IMG/VR virus record: IMGVR_UViG_2728369188_000008
Coordinates: 1 to 41,423 of that record
From: a virus
Taxonomy: Duplodnaviria > Heunggongvirae > Uroviricota > Caudoviricetes
DNA: 41,423 nt
Strand: one strand, 5' to 3'
Positions within the stretch are counted from its first letter, which is position 1. Every line of letters begins with the position of its first letter. Shown here piece by piece: positions 2,991 to 14,146 of this stretch. The position numbers were made by a program, and so were the translations under genes. The notes below the pieces were generated by a model, which was not told the DNA's origin, ran no database searches, and saw only the letters and a program-made list of their open reading frames with translations.

Positions 2991-3685
2991 TTTTGCTCGC
3001 CTCCCTGTTCTTCCAGAAAAATACGCATAGCCTCAAGCATCTCTTCGGTGTCATACGGAGACAGCTTGTCACGCAGGATGTGTTCAATGCTGTTAATGAA
3101 CTTTCGGATTGCTTTGCGTTCAATTTCATCCAGGAAAGCATCGGTGGCTGGGGTTTCGACATTAGGTCGAAGCTCATAATCACAAACTCTTTCAATCCAT
3201 GGTGATACTCTGTCGCATTTCCTCTTCTTGCGTTCACCGACCTTGGTTGCCTGCTGAATAATTACCCCCCAGCAAATGCTTTCGACCTCTTCGCTCCATC
3301 CATCGCAAGCATCGCCTCTATAGTCGTCAATTGCAGCCTCAGCAGCAGCGATAGCCTCCTCAGCAGTTTTGTGACACTCGAAACTAAATTCAGAGCCATA
3401 TGAGAAATACATAGCCCCGGCCTTCAGCGCCGCATTCTCCGCCGCCAGCGCTGAAAACTTCTCGTGTGCCAACTTAACAGCCGAATCAGCCTGCTTAATT
3501 GACTCAATCGCTCTCTGCTGGTCTTCGGACAGAGCCGAAATCTTGGCCTCCGCTTCAGCAAATTTACGCACCAGATATTCAGCGTTTGTTTCGTTAACCT
3601 TTAAATCTCGTGGTATGCATTTACCTTTCAGAAATCCATCCATCTCAATTAGTGACATTAGTTTCATTTCTTCCCACTCCGCCAC
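2987..3685 (-). CDS. Hypothetical protein (232 aa)
   Basis: Long ORF in early-left operon; helical composition; no motif recognised. Confidence 0.5.
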
Positions 3686-3861
3686 ATAGCATTCAGATAT
3701 TTGTTGTCATTAACAGAACCGAAACTATTTCTCTTAAGCAATTCCTCTCTCGATGGCATTGGCTTTACGCTTTGGCGAATAATCATTTCTGCCGGAAGAA
3801 TGCCGGGATTGTATGCAAGTCCTCTCATGGTAAATTCCTCAGTCATTACTGATAGCGCCAT
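3664..3861 (-). CDS. Hypothetical small protein (65 aa)
   Basis: ORF packed between neighbours in the same operon. Confidence 0.35.
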
Positions 3862-4135
3862 AGCGTGAGCGGTAATTACGCAGGCGCGGGTCGATATATT
3901 CAGGGAAGTGGGTATATGTGGCTTTACGGAATGGTCGGATTGATGTTTCGTTTATTCGGTCTTTTTCCTGTTTTTCTGCGAGTTGTATATCGCGTCGGTA
4001 CTTCCGTTCTTCTTTTGTTTCTGGTGGCAGAGCAAGAAACGCGTCGAGATTATTCTTGATATTTTCCAGCACCTCCGATACGGAATTGCCGGAGCAGTTG
4101 CGCGGGTCATCCTCACCATACAGAGGCGCTGGCAT
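3839..4135 (-). CDS. Hypothetical protein (98 aa)
   Basis: ORF immediately downstream of the ssb-like gene in the recombination cluster. Confidence 0.45.
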
Positions 4136-4158: not shown

Positions 4159-4542
4159 TCAGAATGGGATGGAATCGTCGTATTCAGGATGATTTTGATG
4201 ATTGCTACTTTGCTGCTGTTGGCTGTTTCCTGAAGTTGCAAATCCAATCTTTGCATTCAGTAATTCAAGAGTGATTGATTGACCATTTTGCCCCTGATAA
4301 ACATCAACCCTGATGTTTTCTCCGGTAATTTCCACAATGCCACCTTCAACAAGAACACTACGGTAGTAATCCGCTTGCGCTCCCGGCTTGGCAAATACAA
4401 CGGCGCTGTAGTTTGTCCATTCTTTCTTTTTTGTCTGGCGATCGTAATACTGAACGCCAGCACGGATGTTGAATCCGATATTTTCCCCGGCCTGAAACTC
4501 TCTTGCGGGCTTGTTTAGTCTTACAGTAATCGAATGTGCCAT
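4159..4542 (-). CDS. ssb: Single-strand DNA-binding (SSB-like) protein
   Basis: ATG at 4542 overlaps erf stop (TAATG); C-terminus QQQQSSNHQNHPEYDDSIPF resembles the acidic DDDIPF tip of bacterial SSB. Track ORF 4159-4632 trimmed. Confidence 0.55.
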   Translation of the reverse strand: MAHSITVRLNKPAREFQAGENIGFNIRAGVQYYDRQTKKKEWTNYSAVVFAKPGAQADYYRSVLVEGGIVEITGENIRVDVYQGQNGQSITLELLNAKIGFATSGNSQQQQSSNHQNHPEYDDSIPF

Positions 4543-5147
4543 TAAGCAGCCGCTCCTTCTAATTCGTCTCGTCTGATGTTGTAAACGTCCTGCGCTTTGT
4601 GCTGCTCCGGTGTGCCTTCGAGCAGCTTCCACGCTTTGGCGAACGCCTGTTTAAGCTCTTCTACGGTGTTTTTCTGCATTGCTGCGTCAGTGAATGCTTT
4701 TAGAACCTGTTCAGGTGTAGGTAATGGTTTTGATTGCTTTGCTGCTGCGTTCTGCTGATGTTTATGCTCGTCGGTATCTGCATCTTTCGCATCATCAATG
4801 CCGAATAAACCATTGAGGCAATACTTGCGTGCATAAGAGCTTGTAGCTCCCGTAACTTGTGCAGAATCCATTCCTTTCTTGCTTTCTTCCTCTCGTGCAA
4901 GAGCGGTTGCTTTATGACTGTTTTCGCCATCAGTAATAGTTGCCGTTGCTTTCACGTAATACCGATCACCAATCAACACAACTTCATCGCTGATTGATAA
5001 AAACAGGCCATTCAGTAACGGCTTAACACCCTCAAGAATGTCTTCGCAGCTTCTGTATTTATATTTGCCGAATGAGTTGTATTGATTCTTTGGCGCGTTC
5101 AGATTCTCCTGAATAGCTGCCAGCCTTGCGTAAAATTCTTTGCTCAT
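4542..5147 (-). CDS. erf: ERF-family single-strand annealing recombinase
   Basis: Protein beginning MSKEFYARLAAIQENLNAPKNQYNSFGKYKYRSCEDILEG matches my memory of P22 Erf; start taken at the internal Met of track ORF 4542-5177. Confidence 0.8.
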   Translation of the reverse strand: MSKEFYARLAAIQENLNAPKNQYNSFGKYKYRSCEDILEGVKPLLNGLFLSISDEVVLIGDRYYVKATATITDGENSHKATALAREEESKKGMDSAQVTGATSSYARKYCLNGLFGIDDAKDADTDEHKHQQNAAAKQSKPLPTPEQVLKAFTDAAMQKNTVEELKQAFAKAWKLLEGTPEQHKAQDVYNIRRDELEGAAA

Positions 5148-5248
5148 ATGTTTGTTCTCAGAATGGACATTCCCCAAGGAAATAACGCTGATTTAATACT
5201 TCGACTCGGGACAAATTAAGGCATACCCGCATTCCTTCGCGGTCGCCA

Positions 5249-7061: not shown

Positions 7062-7090
7062 GCAAAGAAAACCCGGCGCTGAGGCCGGGT
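7062..7090 (-). terminator. tImm-like intrinsic terminator after rexB
   Basis: Minus-strand hairpin cccggcctcagcgccggg followed by ttttcttt, overlapping the rexB stop. Confidence 0.75.
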
Positions 7091-7524
7091 TATTCTTGTT
7101 CTCTGGTCAAATTATATAGTTGGAAAACAAGGATGCATATATGAATGAACGATGCAGAGGCAATGCCGATGGCGATAGTGGGTATCATGTAGCCGCTTAT
7201 GCTGGAAAGAAGCAATAACCCGCAGAAAAACAAAGCTCCAAGCTCAACAAAACTAAGGGCATAGACAATAACTACCGATGTCATATACCCATACTCTCTA
7301 ATCTTGGCCAGTCGGCGCGTTCTGCTTCCGATTAGAAACGTCAAGGCAGCAATCAGGATTGCAATCATGGTTCCTGCATATGATGACAATGTCGCCCCAA
7401 GACCATCTCTATGAGCTGAAAAAGAAACACCAGGAATGTAGTGGCGGAAAAGGAGATAGCAAATGCTTACGATAACGTAAGGAATTATTACTATGTAAAC
7501 ACCAGGCATGATTCTGTTCCGCAT
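7090..7524 (-). CDS. rexB: RexB, membrane component of the Rex exclusion system
   Basis: 144-aa multi-pass hydrophobic protein matching lambda RexB; downstream of rexA in the PRM transcript. Confidence 0.95.
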   Translation of the reverse strand: MRNRIMPGVYIVIIPYVIVSICYLLFRHYIPGVSFSAHRDGLGATLSSYAGTMIAILIAALTFLIGSRTRRLAKIREYGYMTSVVIVYALSFVELGALFFCGLLLLSSISGYMIPTIAIGIASASFIHICILVFQLYNLTREQE

Positions 7525-7539
7525 AATTACTCCTGATAA

Positions 7540-8379
7540 TTAATCCTTAACTTTGCCCACCTGCCTTTTAAAACATTCCAGTATATCACTTTTCATTCTT
7601 GCGTAGCAATATGCCATCTCTTCAGCTATCTCAGCATTGGTGACCTTGTTCAGAGGCGCTGAGAGATGGCCTTTTTCTGATAGATAATGTTCTGTTAAAA
7701 TATCTCCGGCCTCATCTTTTGCCCGCAGGCTAATGTCTGAAAATTGAGGTGACGGGTTAAAAATAATATCCTTGGCAACCTTTTTTATATCCCTTTTAAA
7801 TTTTGGCTTAATGACTATATCCAATGAGTCAAAAAGCTCCCCTTCAATATCTGTTGCCCCTAAGACCTTTAATATATCGCCAAATACAGGTAGCTTGGCT
7901 TCTACCTTCACCGTTGTTCGGCCGATGAAATGCATATGCATAACATCGTCTTTGGTGGTTCCCCTCATCAGTGGCTCTATCTGAACGCGCTCTCCACTGC
8001 TTAATGACATTCCTTTCCCGATTAAAAAATCTGTCAGATCGGATGTGGTCGGCCCGAAAACAGTTCTGGCAAAACCAATGGTGTCGCCTTCAACAAACAA
8101 AAAAGATGGGAATCCCAATGATTCGTCATCTGCGAGGCTGTTCTTAATATCTTCAACTGAAGCTTTAGAGCGATTTATCTTCTGAACCAGACTCTTGTCA
8201 TTTGTTTTGGTAAAGAGAAAAGTTTTTCCATCGATTTTATGAATATACAAATAATTGGAGCCAACCTGCAGGTGATGATTATCAGCCAGCAGAGAATTAA
8301 GGAAAACAGACAGGTTTATTGAGCGCTTATCTTTCCCTTTATTTTTGCTGCGGTAAGTCGCATAAAAACCATTCTTCAT
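7540..8379 (-). CDS. rexA: RexA, sensor component of the Rex exclusion system
   Basis: 279-aa protein matching lambda RexA; directly downstream of cI. Confidence 0.95.
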   Translation of the reverse strand: MKNGFYATYRSKNKGKDKRSINLSVFLNSLLADNHHLQVGSNYLYIHKIDGKTFLFTKTNDKSLVQKINRSKASVEDIKNSLADDESLGFPSFLFVEGDTIGFARTVFGPTTSDLTDFLIGKGMSLSSGERVQIEPLMRGTTKDDVMHMHFIGRTTVKVEAKLPVFGDILKVLGATDIEGELFDSLDIVIKPKFKRDIKKVAKDIIFNPSPQFSDISLRAKDEAGDILTEHYLSEKGHLSAPLNKVTNAEIAEEMAYCYARMKSDILECFKRQVGKVKD

Positions 8380-8491
8380 AATTCAATCCATTTACTATGT
8401 TATGTTCTGAGGGGAGTGAAAATTCCCCTAATTCGATGAAGATTCTTGCTCAATTGTTATCAGCTATGCGCCGACCAGAACACCTTGCCGA

Positions 8492-9208
<717 letters not shown>

Positions 9209-9211
9209 TTA

Positions 9212-9283
9212 AATCTATCACCGCAAGGGATAAATATCTAACACCGTGCGTGTTGACTATTTTACCTCTGGCGGTGATAATGG
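9212..9283. promoter_or_regulatory. OR3-OR2-OR1 with divergent PRM and PR
   Basis: TATCACCGCAAGGGATA (9216-9232), TAACACCGTGCGTGTTG (9239-9255), TACCTCTGGCGGTGATA (9263-9279); PR -35 TTGACT 9253-9258, -10 GATAAT 9276-9281. Confidence 0.95.
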
Positions 9284-9296
9284 TTGCATGTACTAA

Positions 9297-9506
<210 letters not shown>

Positions 9507-9513
9507 ATAACCC

Positions 9514-9545
9514 CGCTCTTACACATTCCAGCCCTGAAAAAGGGC
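9514..9545 (+). promoter_or_regulatory. nutR (boxA CGCTCTTA, boxB GCCCTGAAAAAGGGC)
   Basis: boxA at 9514-9521 and boxB hairpin at 9531-9545 directly after cro. Confidence 0.9.
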
Positions 9546-9604
9546 ATCAAATTAAACCACACCTATGGTGTATGCATTTATTTGCATACATTCAATCAAT
9601 TGTT

Positions 9605-9645
9605 ATCTAAGGAAATACTTACATATGCAACTTACAAGTACTCGC
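9605..9645 (-). promoter_or_regulatory. Candidate PRE with CII box (TTGC-N6-TTGT) over the cII start
   Basis: Minus-strand TTGCGAGTACTTGT at 9632-9645, at the same offset from the cII ATG as the TTGC-N6-TTGC box of lambda. Confidence 0.45.
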
Positions 9646-9903
9646 AAGAAAGCGAATGCAATTACAAGCAACCTCCTGAATCGAATTGCTGTACGTGGTC
9701 AGCGAAAGGTTGCCGACGCGTTAGGGATTAATGAATCGCAAATTTCGCGATGGAAAGACAGCTTTATCCCAAAGATGGCCATGCTTCTGGCTGTGCTGGA
9801 ATGGGGTGTTGAAGACGAGGAGTTGGCGGAACTGGCTAAGCAAGTAGCCAGAATGCTGACAAAAGAAAAAGCCCCGAAGAACGGCGAATTCTTCGAGGCC
9901 TGA
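9625..9903 (+). CDS. cII: CII-like transcriptional activator (non-lambda allele)
   Basis: 92-aa protein; ESQISRWK...[13 protein letters not shown] core resembles lambda CII but flanks diverge; AAGGA RBS; start is the internal Met of track ORF 9565-9903. Confidence 0.8.
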
Positions 9904-9937
9904 TGTAGAAAGACTGGATCAATCCACAGGAGTAATT

Positions 9938-10084
9938 ATGACAAAACAACTCAGTCCTTACCAGGACAAAATTCACAAACACATACTACGTGATCGCTTC
10001 CTGTCCAGCTTCAAGCAGCCTGGTCGATTCCGGGCTGAGTTGGAAAAAGTGAAGCTGATGCAGAAGGAGAAAGGTCATGAGTAA
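9938..10084 (+). CDS. Hypothetical small basic protein (48 aa), translationally coupled to O
   Basis: ATG at 9938 with AGGAG RBS; stop overlaps the O start by 8 nt. Below ORF-track cutoff. Confidence 0.4.
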
Positions 10085-10937
10085 TCTTGCAACCGTAACA
10101 CATTTAAGGCCTTCACAACGGCCTGTGGAGCGTCGTGTGGCAGAAGTTGAAGATGGTTATACCCGTCTTGCAAATGCCCTGTATGAAGAGCTTATCGGCG
10201 CAGATTTAACGAAAAATCAGAGCAAGGTTGCCCACGCCATATGCCGTAAAACATACGGCTACGGTAAAAAGATGGATCGCATCTCTGATAGTCAGTTAGC
10301 TCAAATTACCAGGCTGCCAAGACAGAAGGTAAACAAGGCCAAGAATGAGCTTATCGCGATGAAGGTAATCCTTCGCGAAGGCCAGCAAATCGGGCCTAAC
10401 AAGAACATCGAGGAATGGCAAATCGAAGGGTGTCACTACTCTGGTGATAATGTCACTGCATTGGTGACAAAAAGTGTCACCAAAACGGTGACAGCGCTGT
10501 CACCAAAACAGGGACACACAAAAGAAACTATTACAAAAGAAAAAAGAAATAATAAAAACACTATGTCCGAAAGTGTTCGGACGGAGTGTGAAAAATCATC
10601 TGACCGTCACGAAGAAACCGACAAGGCATTCGAGGAAATATTCTGGTGTGCAGGCATGCGGAAAGCCGGGAAGAAAAACGCAGCTTCGGCATTCAGAACA
10701 CAGTTCAGGGAATGGCGTAAAACTACCAGGGGTACGGCAAGCGAGTTTGCCACGATGCTGGCAGAAGACATCGCATGCAGGAATGGTAAGCAGTTCGGAT
10801 TCGACAGGTTGTTACCATCGAGCTACCTGAACGGTCAACGCTGGAACGACGAGAAGCCAGAAACTATTCAACCACAATCCAAACCATCATCCGCAATCAC
10901 CGTATCGAAAACTGGCTACGTGTTTTTCGACAGGTGA
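10077..10937 (+). CDS. O: Replication initiator O-like protein
   Basis: N-terminal domain resembles lambda O ([14 protein letters not shown]...[10 protein letters not shown]...[24 protein letters not shown]); iteron origin lies inside the gene. Confidence 0.85.
10430..10560. repeat. Replication origin: iterons plus AT-rich tract inside O
   Basis: Repeated palindromic units of form GGTGACA-N5-TGTCACC (10462-10517) followed by an A/T-rich run 10520-10560. Confidence 0.75.
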
Positions 10938-10940
10938 ACC

Positions 10941-11048
10941 ATGAAATCAAAAATCAAATCGCTACTGGTCGCTGGTTATAACCACGGCTGGTTAAGTATT
11001 TCGTTTGTCGATTTCTGGTTTAAAAATCTCAATCTGAGGGAATCATGA
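10941..11048 (+). CDS. Hypothetical small protein (35 aa) between O and the primase-helicase
   Basis: ATG 3 nt after the O stop; stop overlaps the primase start (ATGA). Below ORF-track cutoff; weak. Confidence 0.25.
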   Translation: MKSKIKSLLVAGYNHGWLSISFVDFWFKNLNLRES

Positions 11049-12925
11049 CGCCAAGTGAACTTAGCGACCTGCTTTGGGCGCAGGTTGACAGGGTGGCTCC
11101 GCACCTGTTGCCAAACGGCAAGAAAGAGGGGCATGAGTGGGTTGCCGGTAACGTCAACGGTGACAAGGGAAACAGCCTTAAGGTCAACCTTAGCGGCAAG
11201 AAAAAATGGGCTGATTTCGCTGAGGGAGACGGCGGTGACATGCTTGATTTGTGGATGGCATGTCGTGGAATTAACCTGCATCAGGCTATGCAGGAAGCGA
11301 AAGCATTTCTCGGTATCAAGGATGACGATCACCATTTCGATGCCAAACGTGAGAAGAAATTCTCCAGACCTGATCGCAAGAAAATCGCCCGCTACGTTAC
11401 CAGAACAGAATCCCATCTTGAGTACCTGCAATCGCGTGGCATATCGCCAGAAGTCGTAAAGCGCTACGAGGTTGTCAGCGGCAAGGTGTGGAATGGAGAG
11501 CGGGAACTGGATGCTCTGGTGATTCCGTACAAACGCGATGGTGAGTTGTTGCAGGTCAAGCGAATCAGCACTGAGCGCCCGGACGGGAAGAAAGTCATTA
11601 TGGCAGAAGGTGATTGCGAACCTTGTCTGTTCGGATGGCAGGCTCTGGACGCTGGCGTGAGGGCGGTTGTACTTTGCGAAGGCGAAATTGATTGTATGAG
11701 CTATGCGCAATACGGCATCTCGGCGTTATCCGTGCCGTTTGGTGGCGGGAAAGGCGCTAAGCAGCAGTGGATTGAGTTTGAGTATCACAATCTCGACAGG
11801 TTTGAGGAAATATTCATCTCGATGGACGTTGATGATGTTGGTCGTGAAGCCGCAAGGGAAATCGCAAGCCGACTCGGTGAACATCGTTGCCGTCTTGTTA
11901 CTCTGCCGTACAAAGACATCAACGAATGCCTGATGAACGGTGTTACCGAGGATGAAATCTGGCAGTACATCGGCACGGCATCCTACTTCGACCCTGAAGA
12001 ACTCTACAGCGCGCGAGAGTTTTACCAGGACACTATCAGCGCTTTCTACGGCAAGCAGCAGTATCTGTTTAATCCACCGTGGGAATCTCTGGCAGATAAA
12101 TTCCAGTTCCGTGAGGCCGAGTTGACGCTGGTCAATGGTGTGAACGGTCACGGAAAAACGGAGGTTGTCGGGCATATGGCACTTGAGGCAATGCGTCAGG
12201 GTGTGAAGACGTGCATCGCGTCACTTGAGCTGAAGCCTGGTATTCTCCTTAAGCGCCTTACCCGTCAGGCGACGTGCTGCAAGATGCCGCCAGTGCTGGA
12301 AATTGACTCTGCATTTAAATTTTATGACGAAAGACTTTGGGTGTTTGGCCTGACCGGAACGGCGAAAGCCGACAGGCTGATCGAAATATTCGACTACGCT
12401 CGCCGCCGATACGGCATCCAGTTATTCATCATCGACAGCCTGATGAAATGCGGCATAGGTGACGATGACTATAACGGGCAGAAAGCATTTGTTGACTCGA
12501 TTTGTGACTTCAAAAACAAAACAAACTCCCACGTCATTCTCGTTACTCACTCCAGAAAAGGAGATAGCGAAGAAAAACCAACCGGGAAAATGGACGTAAA
12601 AGGCTCTGGAGCGATAACAGACCTGACAGACAACCTTTTCATCATCTGGCGTAACAAGGCTCGCGAGAGAGCGTTACAGAGAGTTCAGAGTGGTGAAAAG
12701 ATGTCAGAGAAGGACGAACAGCTACTGGCATCTCCGGCATCTGTTTTGATGCTTGAAAAACAACGTAACGGCGAAGGTTGGGAAGGTGGTGTCCCGTTGT
12801 TCCTTGACGAGCAATCGCACCAGTTCCTGCAACTTGAATCAGGATCGCCATATAGCTACATCGCCAATATGCCGAAATCGGAATATGACGAGGCGTGGAG
12901 ACAGGAAAACGTGACGGAGTATTAA
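11045..12925 (+). CDS. Bifunctional DNA primase-helicase (TOPRIM domain plus RecA-fold/DnaB-like helicase)
   Basis: 626 aa; TOPRIM acidic motifs (CEGEIDCMS, SMDVDDVG); Walker A GVNGHGKTE and Walker B-like FIIDSL in the C-terminal half; occupies the lambda P position. Confidence 0.8.
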   Translation: MTPSELSDLLWAQVDRVAPHLLPNGKKEGHEWVAGNVNGDKGNSLKVNLSGKKKWADFAEGDGGDMLDLWMACRGINLHQAMQEAKAFLGIKDDDHHFDAKREKKFSRPDRKKIARYVTRTESHLEYLQSRGISPEVVKRYEVVSGKVWNGERELDALVIPYKRDGELLQVKRISTERPDGKKVIMAEGDCEPCLFGWQALDAGVRAVVLCEGEIDCMSYAQYGISALSVPFGGGKGAKQQWIEFEYHNLDRFEEIFISMDVDDVGREAAREIASRLGEHRCRLVTLPYKDINECLMNGVTEDEIWQYIGTASYFDPEELYSAREFYQDTISAFYGKQQYLFNPPWESLADKFQFREAELTLVNGVNGHGKTEVVGHMALEAMRQGVKTCIASLELKPGILLKRLTRQATCCKMPPVLEIDSAFKFYDERLWVFGLTGTAKADRLIEIFDYARRRYGIQLFIIDSLMKCGIGDDDYNGQKAFVDSICDFKNKTNSHVILVTHSRKGDSEEKPTGKMDVKGSGAITDLTDNLFIIWRNKARERALQRVQSGEKMSEKDEQLLASPASVLMLEKQRNGEGWEGGVPLFLDEQSHQFLQLESGSPYSYIANMPKSEYDEAWRQENVTEY

Positions 12926-12954
12926 ATGACCATCTACATCACTGAGTTAATAAC

Positions 12955-12986
12955 AGGCCTGCTGGTAATCGCAGGCCTTTTTATTT
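12955..12986 (+). terminator. tR2-like intrinsic terminator
   Basis: Hairpin AGGCCTGCTGGTAATCGCAGGCCT followed by TTTTTATTT, immediately upstream of ninB. Confidence 0.8.
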
Positions 12987-13002
12987 GGGGGAGAGGGGAG
13001 TC

Positions 13003-13443
13003 ATGAAAAAACTAACCTTTGAAATTCGATCTCCAGCACATCAGCAAAACGCTATTCACGCAGTACAGCAAATCCTTCCAGACCCAACCAAACCAATCGT
13101 AGTAACCATTCAGGAACGCAACCGCAGCTTAGACCAAAACAGGAAGCTATGGGCCTGCTTAGGTGACGTCTCTCGTCAGGTTGAATGGCATGGTCGCTGG
13201 CTGGATGCAGAAAGCTGGAAGTGTGTGTTTACCGCAGCATTAAAGCAGCAGGATGTTGTTCCTAACCTTGCCGGGAATGGCTTTGTGGTAATAGGCCAGT
13301 CAACTAGCAGGATGCGTGTAGGCGAATTTGCGGAGCTATTAGAGCTTATACAGGCATTCGGTACAGAGCGTGGCGTTAAGTGGTCAGACGAAGCGAGACT
13401 GGCTCTGGAGTGGAAAGCGAGATGGGGAGATCGGGCTGCATGA
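13003..13443 (+). CDS. ninB: NinB (Orf family recombination mediator)
   Basis: MKKLTFEIRSPAHQQNAIHAVQQILPDPTKPIVVTIQERNRSLDQNRKLWACLGDVS... matches lambda NinB; start is the internal Met of track ORF 12985-13443. Confidence 0.9.
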   Translation: MKKLTFEIRSPAHQQNAIHAVQQILPDPTKPIVVTIQERNRSLDQNRKLWACLGDVSRQVEWHGRWLDAESWKCVFTAALKQQDVVPNLAGNGFVVIGQSTSRMRVGEFAELLELIQAFGTERGVKWSDEARLALEWKARWGDRAA

Positions 13444-13967
13444 CTATCAAATCAAATACGCCAGCACACGACAAGGACTGCTGGCAAACGCCGCTTTGGC
13501 TTTTTGATGCACTGGATATTGAGTTTGGATTCTGGCTGGATTCGGCAGCGAGCGACAAAAATGCTCTGTGTGCTCACTGGCTAACTGAGGCCGACGACGC
13601 GCTCAATTCTGAGTGGGTAAGCCACGGTGCAATCTGGAATAACCCACCGTACAGCAATATCAGGCCGTGGGTGGAAAAAGCCGCTGAGCAGTGCATACAA
13701 CAGCGACAGACGGTAGTTATGCTTGTGCCAGAGGATATGTCAGTCGGATGGTTCAGCAAGGCTCTGGAGAGTGTCGACGAAGTTCGCATTATCACTGATG
13801 GACGGATTAATTTTATCGAACCATCGACAGGGCTGGAGAAGAAGGGAAACAGCAAAGGCTCCATGCTGCTGATTTGGCGACCGTTCATCAGTCCTCGACG
13901 GATGTTTACTACCGTATCCAAAGCGGCATTGATGGCGATCGGGCAGGGCGTCAGGAGGGCGGCATGA
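13440..13967 (+). CDS. Phage DNA N6-adenine methyltransferase (Dam-like)
   Basis: 175-aa protein with NPPYS catalytic motif ([12 protein letters not shown]); start overlaps ninB stop (ATGA); replaces lambda ninC/ninD. Confidence 0.75.
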
Positions 13968-14146
13968 GGCGACAGCGACGAAGTATCACCGACATCATCT
14001 GCGAAAACTGCAAATACCTTCCAACGAAACGCACCAGAAATAAACGCAAGCCAATCCCAAAAGAATCTGACGTAAAAACCTTCAACTACACGGCTCACCT
14101 GTGGGATATCCGGTGGCTTAGAGAACGTGCGAGGAATACAAGGTGA
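13964..14146 (+). CDS. ninE: NinE
   Basis: [51 protein letters not shown]... matches lambda NinE. Confidence 0.85.

Follow-up and report, generated by a model that had tools for sequence, protein, structure and literature searches.

The replication module described here lies at 9938-12925 of the IMG/VR virus record IMGVR_UViG_2728369188_000008, and the whole stretch of 41,423 nucleotides that was analysed is called the window below. The module consists of four co-directional open reading frames (ORFs) which overlap or abut within 2988 bp, and it is an ES18-type lambdoid replication cassette, a kind that is already known and very common. It carries an O-like initiator with the predicted origin inside its own gene, two small genes, and a 626-aa primase-helicase of the T7 gp4/Twinkle type at the place where lambda has P. 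The picture that we consider to be probably correct is that the initiator would form a lambda-like O-some on its iterons, the neighbouring A-rich tract would melt, the C-terminal part of the initiator would load the gp4-like hexamer, and host DNA polymerase III would carry out the elongation.

The 626-aa primase-helicase (11045-12925, plus strand) matches phrog_239, labelled 'DNA primase/helicase', at 6e-171. It begins with a zinc-binding-domain-like region that is Cys-less and continues with a TOPRIM RNA-polymerase domain, after which comes an SF4 RecA-type helicase. The initial annotation of this DNA had proposed that a TOPRIM primase-helicase replaces P, and had named a domain search of the 626-aa protein as the test beforehand. 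The search bore the proposal out: Pfam gave Toprim_2 at 3e-12, above the Pfam cutoff, together with weaker matches to the helicase domains AAA_25 (28 bits) and DnaB_C (23.9 bits), which are to be read against cutoffs of 27 bits. Among solved structures the sequence matches were T7 gp4 (2e-23) and Twinkle (7e-14). The AlphaFold2 model, built with 129 homologues, has a mean pLDDT of 91.8, and its best PDB matches in Foldseek are T7 gp4 chains (E 1e-27, TM 0.76), followed in order by Twinkle, DnaB and Aquifex DnaG with zinc-binding and RNA-polymerase domains. A scan of 10 small and large ORFs at 9565-13967 and of the 30 largest ORFs elsewhere in the window turned up no lambda P, no DnaC-like gene and no gene for a DNA polymerase.

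The catalytic residues of the protein are also in place. The acidic metal-binding residues of the TOPRIM domain (E212, D261, D263 and D291) align to E157, D207, D209 and D237 of the T7 protein and are kept in at least 90% of the 129 homologues; in the same set K371, E395, D464, H502 and K505 are invariant, R536 is near-invariant, and G213, E214 and D216 are invariant or near-invariant. The Walker A lysine, the catalytic glutamate, the Walker B aspartate and the R536-N537 pair are thus all invariant or near-invariant there; the pair, which we take to be the arginine finger, is aligned to the RN motif of T7 gp4. The protein therefore resembles T7 gp4 and mitochondrial Twinkle in domain order and fold (TOPRIM, then SF4 helicase) and in catalytic residues, and it differs from them in an identity of only about 20% and in the N-terminal Cys4 zinc-binding domain, which it lacks. 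The C-terminal tail (residues 600-626) is modelled with low confidence and has an acidic, aromatic end (...EYDEAWRQENVTEY). The acidic C-terminal tail of T7 gp4 contacts T7 polymerase; the tail seen here resembles it and might be where a protein of the host replisome makes contact.

The initiator, named O' here, has 286 aa (10077-10937, plus strand) and was identified by its N-terminal half, which is a winged-helix O domain scoring well above the curated thresholds: Phage_rep_O (PF04492) on residues 20-114 at 1e-37 (128.8 bits against a cutoff of 28.7) and TIGR01610 phage_O_Nterm at 2e-30 (105 bits against 45.5). In BLASTP its identity to lambda O is 49% and is confined to residues 1-157, residue 157 being the end of the AT-rich tract of the origin, and no significant alignment to lambda O was returned past that residue. 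The C-terminal half (about 157-286) matches phrog_33384 at 2e-88. O' thus has the N-terminal domain of the lambda O-type initiators as well as dyad iterons and an AT tract inside the initiator gene, as the initial annotation had claimed in calling it an O-like initiator with its own origin, and it lacks the lambda-like P-interacting C-terminus and the P gene downstream.

In lambda O the N-terminus binds the iterons and the C-terminus contacts P. In the modules compared here the same O C-terminal half, 35-aa gene (orf35) and helicase gene stand behind three types of N-terminus and iteron, namely the TGTCAC type of the window, that of lambda in ES18, and in Stx2a_F403 an HTH_36 domain accompanied by GGGGCAGGAGCTGCCC repeats. 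Homology to Salmonella phage starts only at 10504 and homology to Stx phage only at 10553, and the AT-rich tract reads as a mosaic joint between the two halves of O', which makes a second joint inside the cassette. The proteins retrieved with the O C-terminal domain as query were for the most part incomplete fragments, and they showed two N-terminal Pfam types, PF04492 and PF13730. The order of O C-terminal half, orf35 and helicase was found in 79 of the 79 IMG/VR loci with enough sequence, a narrow sample since all of these copies are at least 98% identical; the diversity of the modules was hence taken from individual loci beyond the IMG/VR set (Proteus, Xenorhabdus, E. coli and others). In one module whose helicase is only 48% identical, the C-terminal domain of the initiator is still homologous (31% identity, E 7e-7) and has the motifs FEEFW and P-x-TYLN-x-RRW-x-DE in common with O', and there the initiator gene directly overlaps the start of the helicase gene. 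Because the O C-terminal domain and the helicase are inherited together while the N-terminus and the iterons swap freely, we infer that this non-lambda C-terminal domain would be the part which recruits the primase-helicase.

The predicted origin lies inside the O' gene, and the GGTGACA/TGTCACC iterons and the AT-rich tract that had been pointed out there were both recovered. Four 19-bp dyad iterons of the form TGTCAC-N7-GTGACA, which are predicted O-binding sites, occupy 10431-10516 with starts at 10431, 10451, 10475 and 10498. The iteron consensus with up to 3 mismatches gave 3 matches where 0.04 were expected, and the TGTCAC-N7-GTGACA pattern with up to 2 mismatches gave all four iterons and one further site at 11147. 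The window contains 12 copies of GGTGACA where 4.0 are expected, and four of these lie within 42 bp of the origin. Two of the other copies (11159 and 11234) and the 2-mismatch dyad (11147) might have been outlying O sites, an idea that was rejected because 1.4 such dyads are expected and these sites are probably due to chance. The start-to-start spacing of the iterons (20, 24 and 23 bp) is exactly that of the annotated lambda iterons (39034/39054/39078/39101), and the first iteron begins 354 nt from the O start here and 348 nt in lambda. A Proteus mirabilis prophage, in which the module has about 68% nucleotide identity, has the same TGTCACC type of iteron and the same 20/24/23 spacing, and this conservation across such a distance argues for functional constraint and not chance.

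Directly after the iterons comes an AT-rich tract with A-strand bias (10517-10557; 83% AT, 71% A), which is the most A-rich 41-mer of the window, is aligned with the AT-rich regions of lambda and ES18, and is the predicted DNA-unwinding element. To its right lies a palindrome with 14-nt arms (10558-10589, an inverted repeat with 86% complementarity), a feature that the initial annotation had passed over; in the alignment it takes the position of the segment to the right of the lambda AT tract, and its sequence is common to ES18 and Stx2a_F403 and is not that of lambda. The order of iterons, AT tract and palindrome is the lambda order.

By comparison with lambda O and T7 gp4, the module would probably work in the following manner. 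Early rightward transcription from the lambda-identical pR/cro region would take in all the overlapping genes as a single operon. At the four dyad iterons within the O' gene, the winged-helix domain of the O' N-terminus would bind as dimers and build the lambda-like O-some, upon which the A-rich tract beside the iterons would melt. The C-terminal domain of O' would then bring in the T7-gp4-like hexameric primase-helicase of the phage, a step that would replace the hijacking of host DnaB by lambda P, and this enzyme would unwind the DNA and lay RNA primers via its TOPRIM domain. Elongation would fall to host DNA polymerase III, because no polymerase gene was found in the phage ORFs scanned. The 35-aa protein would be a lineage-specific accessory of the O'-helicase pair. 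Replication of this kind is likely to be independent of host DnaB, DnaC and DnaG.

Several points weigh against this picture. Every step of the mechanism is argued by analogy from lambda O and T7 gp4, and the literature searched gave genome descriptions of this module type and no experimental work on it. The picture also calls for a gp4-like helicase to couple to host polymerase III. The O C-terminal domain, modelled by AlphaFold2 on a 13-row alignment, shows three helices and then disorder, and with a pLDDT of only 56.7 the model offers no structural support for an interaction surface. Further, an E. coli prophage (JACYIN020000002, 1127-4884) has a 73%-identical primase-helicase behind an unrelated 372-aa protein, so the helicase is not bound to this C-terminal domain and can work with other initiators; the 372-aa protein reads as a different initiator partner for the same helicase family. 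That locus also has a Rha/ANT-domain protein upstream, it has no O-like gene and no 35-aa ORF, and the 372-aa protein has no Pfam match. The last point concerns the N-terminus of the primase-helicase. It had been described as having a zinc-binding-domain-like layout without obvious Cys ligands, and this description stands: residues 26-143 match the dnaG model TIGR01391 at 8e-10, there are no Cys or His ligands in the region, residues 1-190 contain a single Cys (C73), and the four zinc-ligand positions are Gly, Ser, Asp or Thr in 123 diverse family members and Cys in none of them. Primase activity is for this reason not assured.

These zinc-ligand positions are the ground for the main alternative, which is that the 626-aa protein is a helicase only, that priming has been lost, and that primers come from host DnaG or from transcription by RNA polymerase. 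T7 gp4 without its zinc-binding domain makes no template-directed primers, and metazoan Twinkle, which is without zinc ligands, is not a primase. However, metazoan Twinkle has lost the TOPRIM residues also, whereas the 626-aa protein has kept them. Its TOPRIM acidic residues and its Cys-less N-terminal domain are both strongly conserved, which argues for a selected function and not for decay: the positions beside the ligand sites (Gly, Ser, Trp, Asp, Phe) are strongly kept across the 123 family members, and G35, G39, G42, S44, G51, D57, F58, G64, D65 and L69 are kept in at least 90% of the 129 sequences. The N-terminus is thus a conserved zinc-free variant of the domain which has not decayed. 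Moreover, DnaG is recruited via the N-terminal domain of DnaB, and the 626-aa protein has no such domain. A protein that only unwinds is on these grounds unlikely.

A second alternative keeps host DnaB as the fork helicase, reached via O' or via an accessory such as orf35, and leaves to the 626-aa protein mainly priming or a later mode of replication. It can draw on the 35-aa and 48-aa proteins, to which no function is assigned, and it has no direct evidence. It is opposed by the SF4 helicase motifs, which are intact and invariant, by the failure to find a P-like or DnaC-like loader among the ORFs scanned, and by the O' C-terminus, which is unrelated to the P-contacting C-terminus of lambda O and is inherited with the phage helicase; we rate it as very improbable. 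The initial annotation had put it that this phage probably does not recruit host DnaB, which is a reasonable view given intact helicase motifs and the lack of any gene for a loader among the ORFs scanned. Finally, the repeats could simply reflect the coding of a repetitive V-T-K linker peptide of O', with the true origin elsewhere, for the iterons are translated as peptide repeats and the two kinds of repeat are inseparable by sequence alone, but this is scarcely credible when each unit has dyad symmetry, the spacing is exactly that of the functional lambda iterons, the A-rich tract and the palindrome follow in lambda order, and related modules have at this position three unrelated iteron sequences, each paired with an N-terminal domain of another type.

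Within the preferred picture, that of an O-some which loads the phage's own primase-helicase, a more specific proposal can be made tentatively. The O C-terminal domain, perhaps with the 35-aa protein, might be an adaptor that loads a gp4-type ring at a lambda-type iteron origin, so giving a phage independent of DnaB, DnaC and DnaG, and the Cys-less domain might recognise the template without metal and so continue to support priming. We regard the two parts in combination as possible and would not rely on them. To our knowledge such a hybrid initiation pathway has never been reconstituted.

The two small genes flank O' and are coupled to it, as the initial annotation had noticed. The stop of the 48-aa ORF and the O' start overlap by 8 nt (ATGAGTAA), the gap from the O' stop to the ATG of the 35-aa ORF is 3 nt, the stop of the 35-aa ORF and the start of the 626-aa ORF overlap as ATGA, and each of the four ORF starts has a Shine-Dalgarno-like motif. 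To judge from their sequences, both small ORFs are real genes. The 48-aa gene (9938-10084, plus strand) belongs to the DUF2740 family (Pfam, 9e-29), and its product also matches phrog_1913 (3e-28), which is labelled 'tail protein'. That label on the DUF2740 micro-protein is almost certainly a misannotation, because the gene sits in an early replication operon. The same label is repeated in the RefSeq records of Sf101, mEp043 and SEN22, and the PGAP annotation of E. coli genomes has 'DUF2740 family protein'. In ES18, Proteus and Xenorhabdus the slot of this gene is filled by unrelated ORFs of 53-58 aa, and the 53-aa ORF of ES18 gave no DUF2740 match; the 48-aa gene appears to be a mosaic unit of its own.

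The 35-aa micro-gene (10941-11048, plus strand) is the equivalent of ES18 gp60 and matches phrog_21848 at 4e-26, its sole match, which is a PHROG of unknown function; no Pfam match was obtained at E ≤10 with four orthologues, and no NCBIfam match. It has exactly 35 codons in the copies from E. coli, Salmonella ES18, Stx2 phage, Proteus and Xenorhabdus. Its pS is 0.45-0.87, with synonymous sites near saturation, against a pN of 0.17-0.29, and these values point to a gene under purifying selection. It was found in 79 of the 79 IMG/VR loci with space for it. More distant modules do not have it, and there the initiator gene overlaps the helicase gene directly. An origin of the 35-aa protein as a split-off C-terminal piece of the initiator was considered and dropped, because a comparison with those initiators whose genes directly adjoin the helicase gene showed no similarity. 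The gene is annotated in ES18, epsilon34 and g341c, and is left out by PGAP in the E. coli genomes listed and by the 2025 record of mEp043.

When the module is compared with known systems, ES18 is like the window in its gene order, and it differs in having lambda-type iterons (ATCCCTCAAAACGAGGGA) with a lambda-like O N-terminus and, upstream of O, the 53-aa ORF in place of DUF2740. Lambda is like the window in the O N-terminal domain, in the architecture of the origin inside the O gene and in the flanking DNA (cro, ninB; 99-100% identical). The window is unlike lambda in that it has no P gene, its O C-terminal half is not detectably homologous, its iteron sequence is another one, and its helicase is phage-encoded whereas that of lambda is host DnaB. 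Replication of T7 starts from transcription-dependent origins, and T7 encodes a polymerase of its own; unlike T7 gp4, the 626-aa protein belongs to a temperate phage and is encoded beside a predicted iteron-binding initiator.

The Shiga-toxin phages are compared next. The Eru5 type (Stx2a_F403, AP012529; also Phi24B and Min27) is like the window in the O C-terminal half, orf35 and the primase-helicase. It is unlike the window in its initiator, which has the HTH_36 N-terminal domain and GGGGCAGGAGCTGCCC repeats; the window has Phage_rep_O at that place and so falls outside the Eru5 region. In the Stx2 phages Stx2a_F403, Phi24B and Min27 the primase-helicase has 968 aa, against 626 aa in the window, and contains an intein. 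This intein, 342 aa inserted in frame, has Hint and LAGLIDADG homing-endonuclease domains and interrupts the protein at the Walker A lysine (about residue 371); in AP012529 it spans about 3108-4131 of the locus sequence, which corresponds to 12155/12156 of the window, and the copy in the window is intein-free. GenBank splits or mislabels the intein-bearing gene as 'P' and 'DNA primase'. In P22, gene 18 and gene 12 occupy the same slot, and there also an O-like initiator is followed by a phage-encoded replicative helicase instead of P (PMC10307801). P22 gp12 differs from the 626-aa protein in being a DnaB-family helicase with no primase domain, and the primase-helicase has been called 'nonhomologous' to it (PMC10307801).

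The window as a whole is an essentially complete genome of a P22-like temperate phage. Virion genes of P22 type are present (portal, coat protein, tail needle, injection protein and tailspike head-binding domain), as is an integrase, and the immunity region is that of phage lambda, with RexA, RexB and N and with cI and cro of identical sequence. The phage is a hybrid of lambda immunity and P22 morphology. RexB, RexA, cI and cro lie at 7090-8379 and 8492-9506, and an Erf recombinase lies at 4542-5177. On the left of the module the DNA from cro to the cII ATG (9265-9627) is 100% identical to lambda, and on the right the DNA from the end of ren into ninB (12926-13359) is 99% identical. The borders of the exchange against lambda are base-precise, at the cII start codon and directly after ren. 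Because the lambda identity stops at 9627 and resumes at 12926, the segment 9628-12925 is a cassette which stands in place of lambda cII-O-P-ren, with the content cII'-orf48-O'-orf35-primase/helicase.

Some smaller features were located at the edges of the cassette. A terminator-like GC hairpin with a T-run was found by consensus scan at 12955-12978 (plus strand; an 8-bp stem with 6 GC pairs, then TTTTATTT); it marks the right edge of the cassette and may function like lambda tR2. A 26-aa ORF (12926-13006) begins directly after the helicase stop and has this hairpin inside it; it lies in the slot of the 26-aa ORF of ES18 that is annotated as similar to P22 NinA. On the minus strand a strong antisense terminator-like hairpin (9901-9869; 14-bp stem and T-run) overlaps the 3' end of cII, and a stretch of 33 nt (9913-9945) is 91% identical to lambda around the O start. 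The two together point to a possible antisense RNA of the oop kind; Rfam, scanned over 8000-14000, gave neither an oop-like nor any other RNA at E ≤0.1.

The module is widely distributed. Sf101 and mEp043 match all 2988 bp at 99% identity, and Salmonella phage SEN22 matches at 91%; the part comprising the O C-terminal half, orf35 and the primase-helicase (10504-12929) has 88% nucleotide identity to ES18, and from 10553 on the identity to Stx2a_F403, Phi24B and Min27 is 96-98%. Of the 5426 complete E. coli genomes, 520 (about 10%) contain at least part of the module, and in 169 the coverage is 80% or more. The helicase family numbers more than 8,000 clusters at 50% identity. By its gene order, its position between cII and the nin region and its identity to the C-terminal part of gp59, to gp60 and to gp61, the module belongs to the ES18 type. 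In the ES18 record of 2005 (AY736146) a similarity to lambda gpO is noted for gp59, gp60 is listed as unknown, gp61 is entered as 'putative primase/helicase; similar to phage T7 gene 4', and there is a rep_origin 'similar to lambda ori'. The same module type was described in P22-like phages in 2023 (PMC10307801), and Stx2a_F403 is the reference phage of the 'Eru5' replication type of Shiga-toxin phages (PMC8951638). The initial annotation, whose statements about the sequence were all borne out, had missed this prior knowledge, that is, the ES18 annotation of 2005 and the description in PMC10307801.

Recognition of the module in this window adds nothing new, the module type being already known and widespread. 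Three modest points appear to have been described too little so far: the co-inheritance of the O C-terminal domain with the helicase, the conserved 35-aa gene that is usually left unannotated, and the zinc-binding-domain-like region that is zinc-free throughout the family. In some Shiga-toxin phages (Eru5 type) this module drives replication, and the replication rate affects the toxin output. A phage with its own primase-helicase should also escape those host controls and defences which act via DnaB, DnaC or DnaG.

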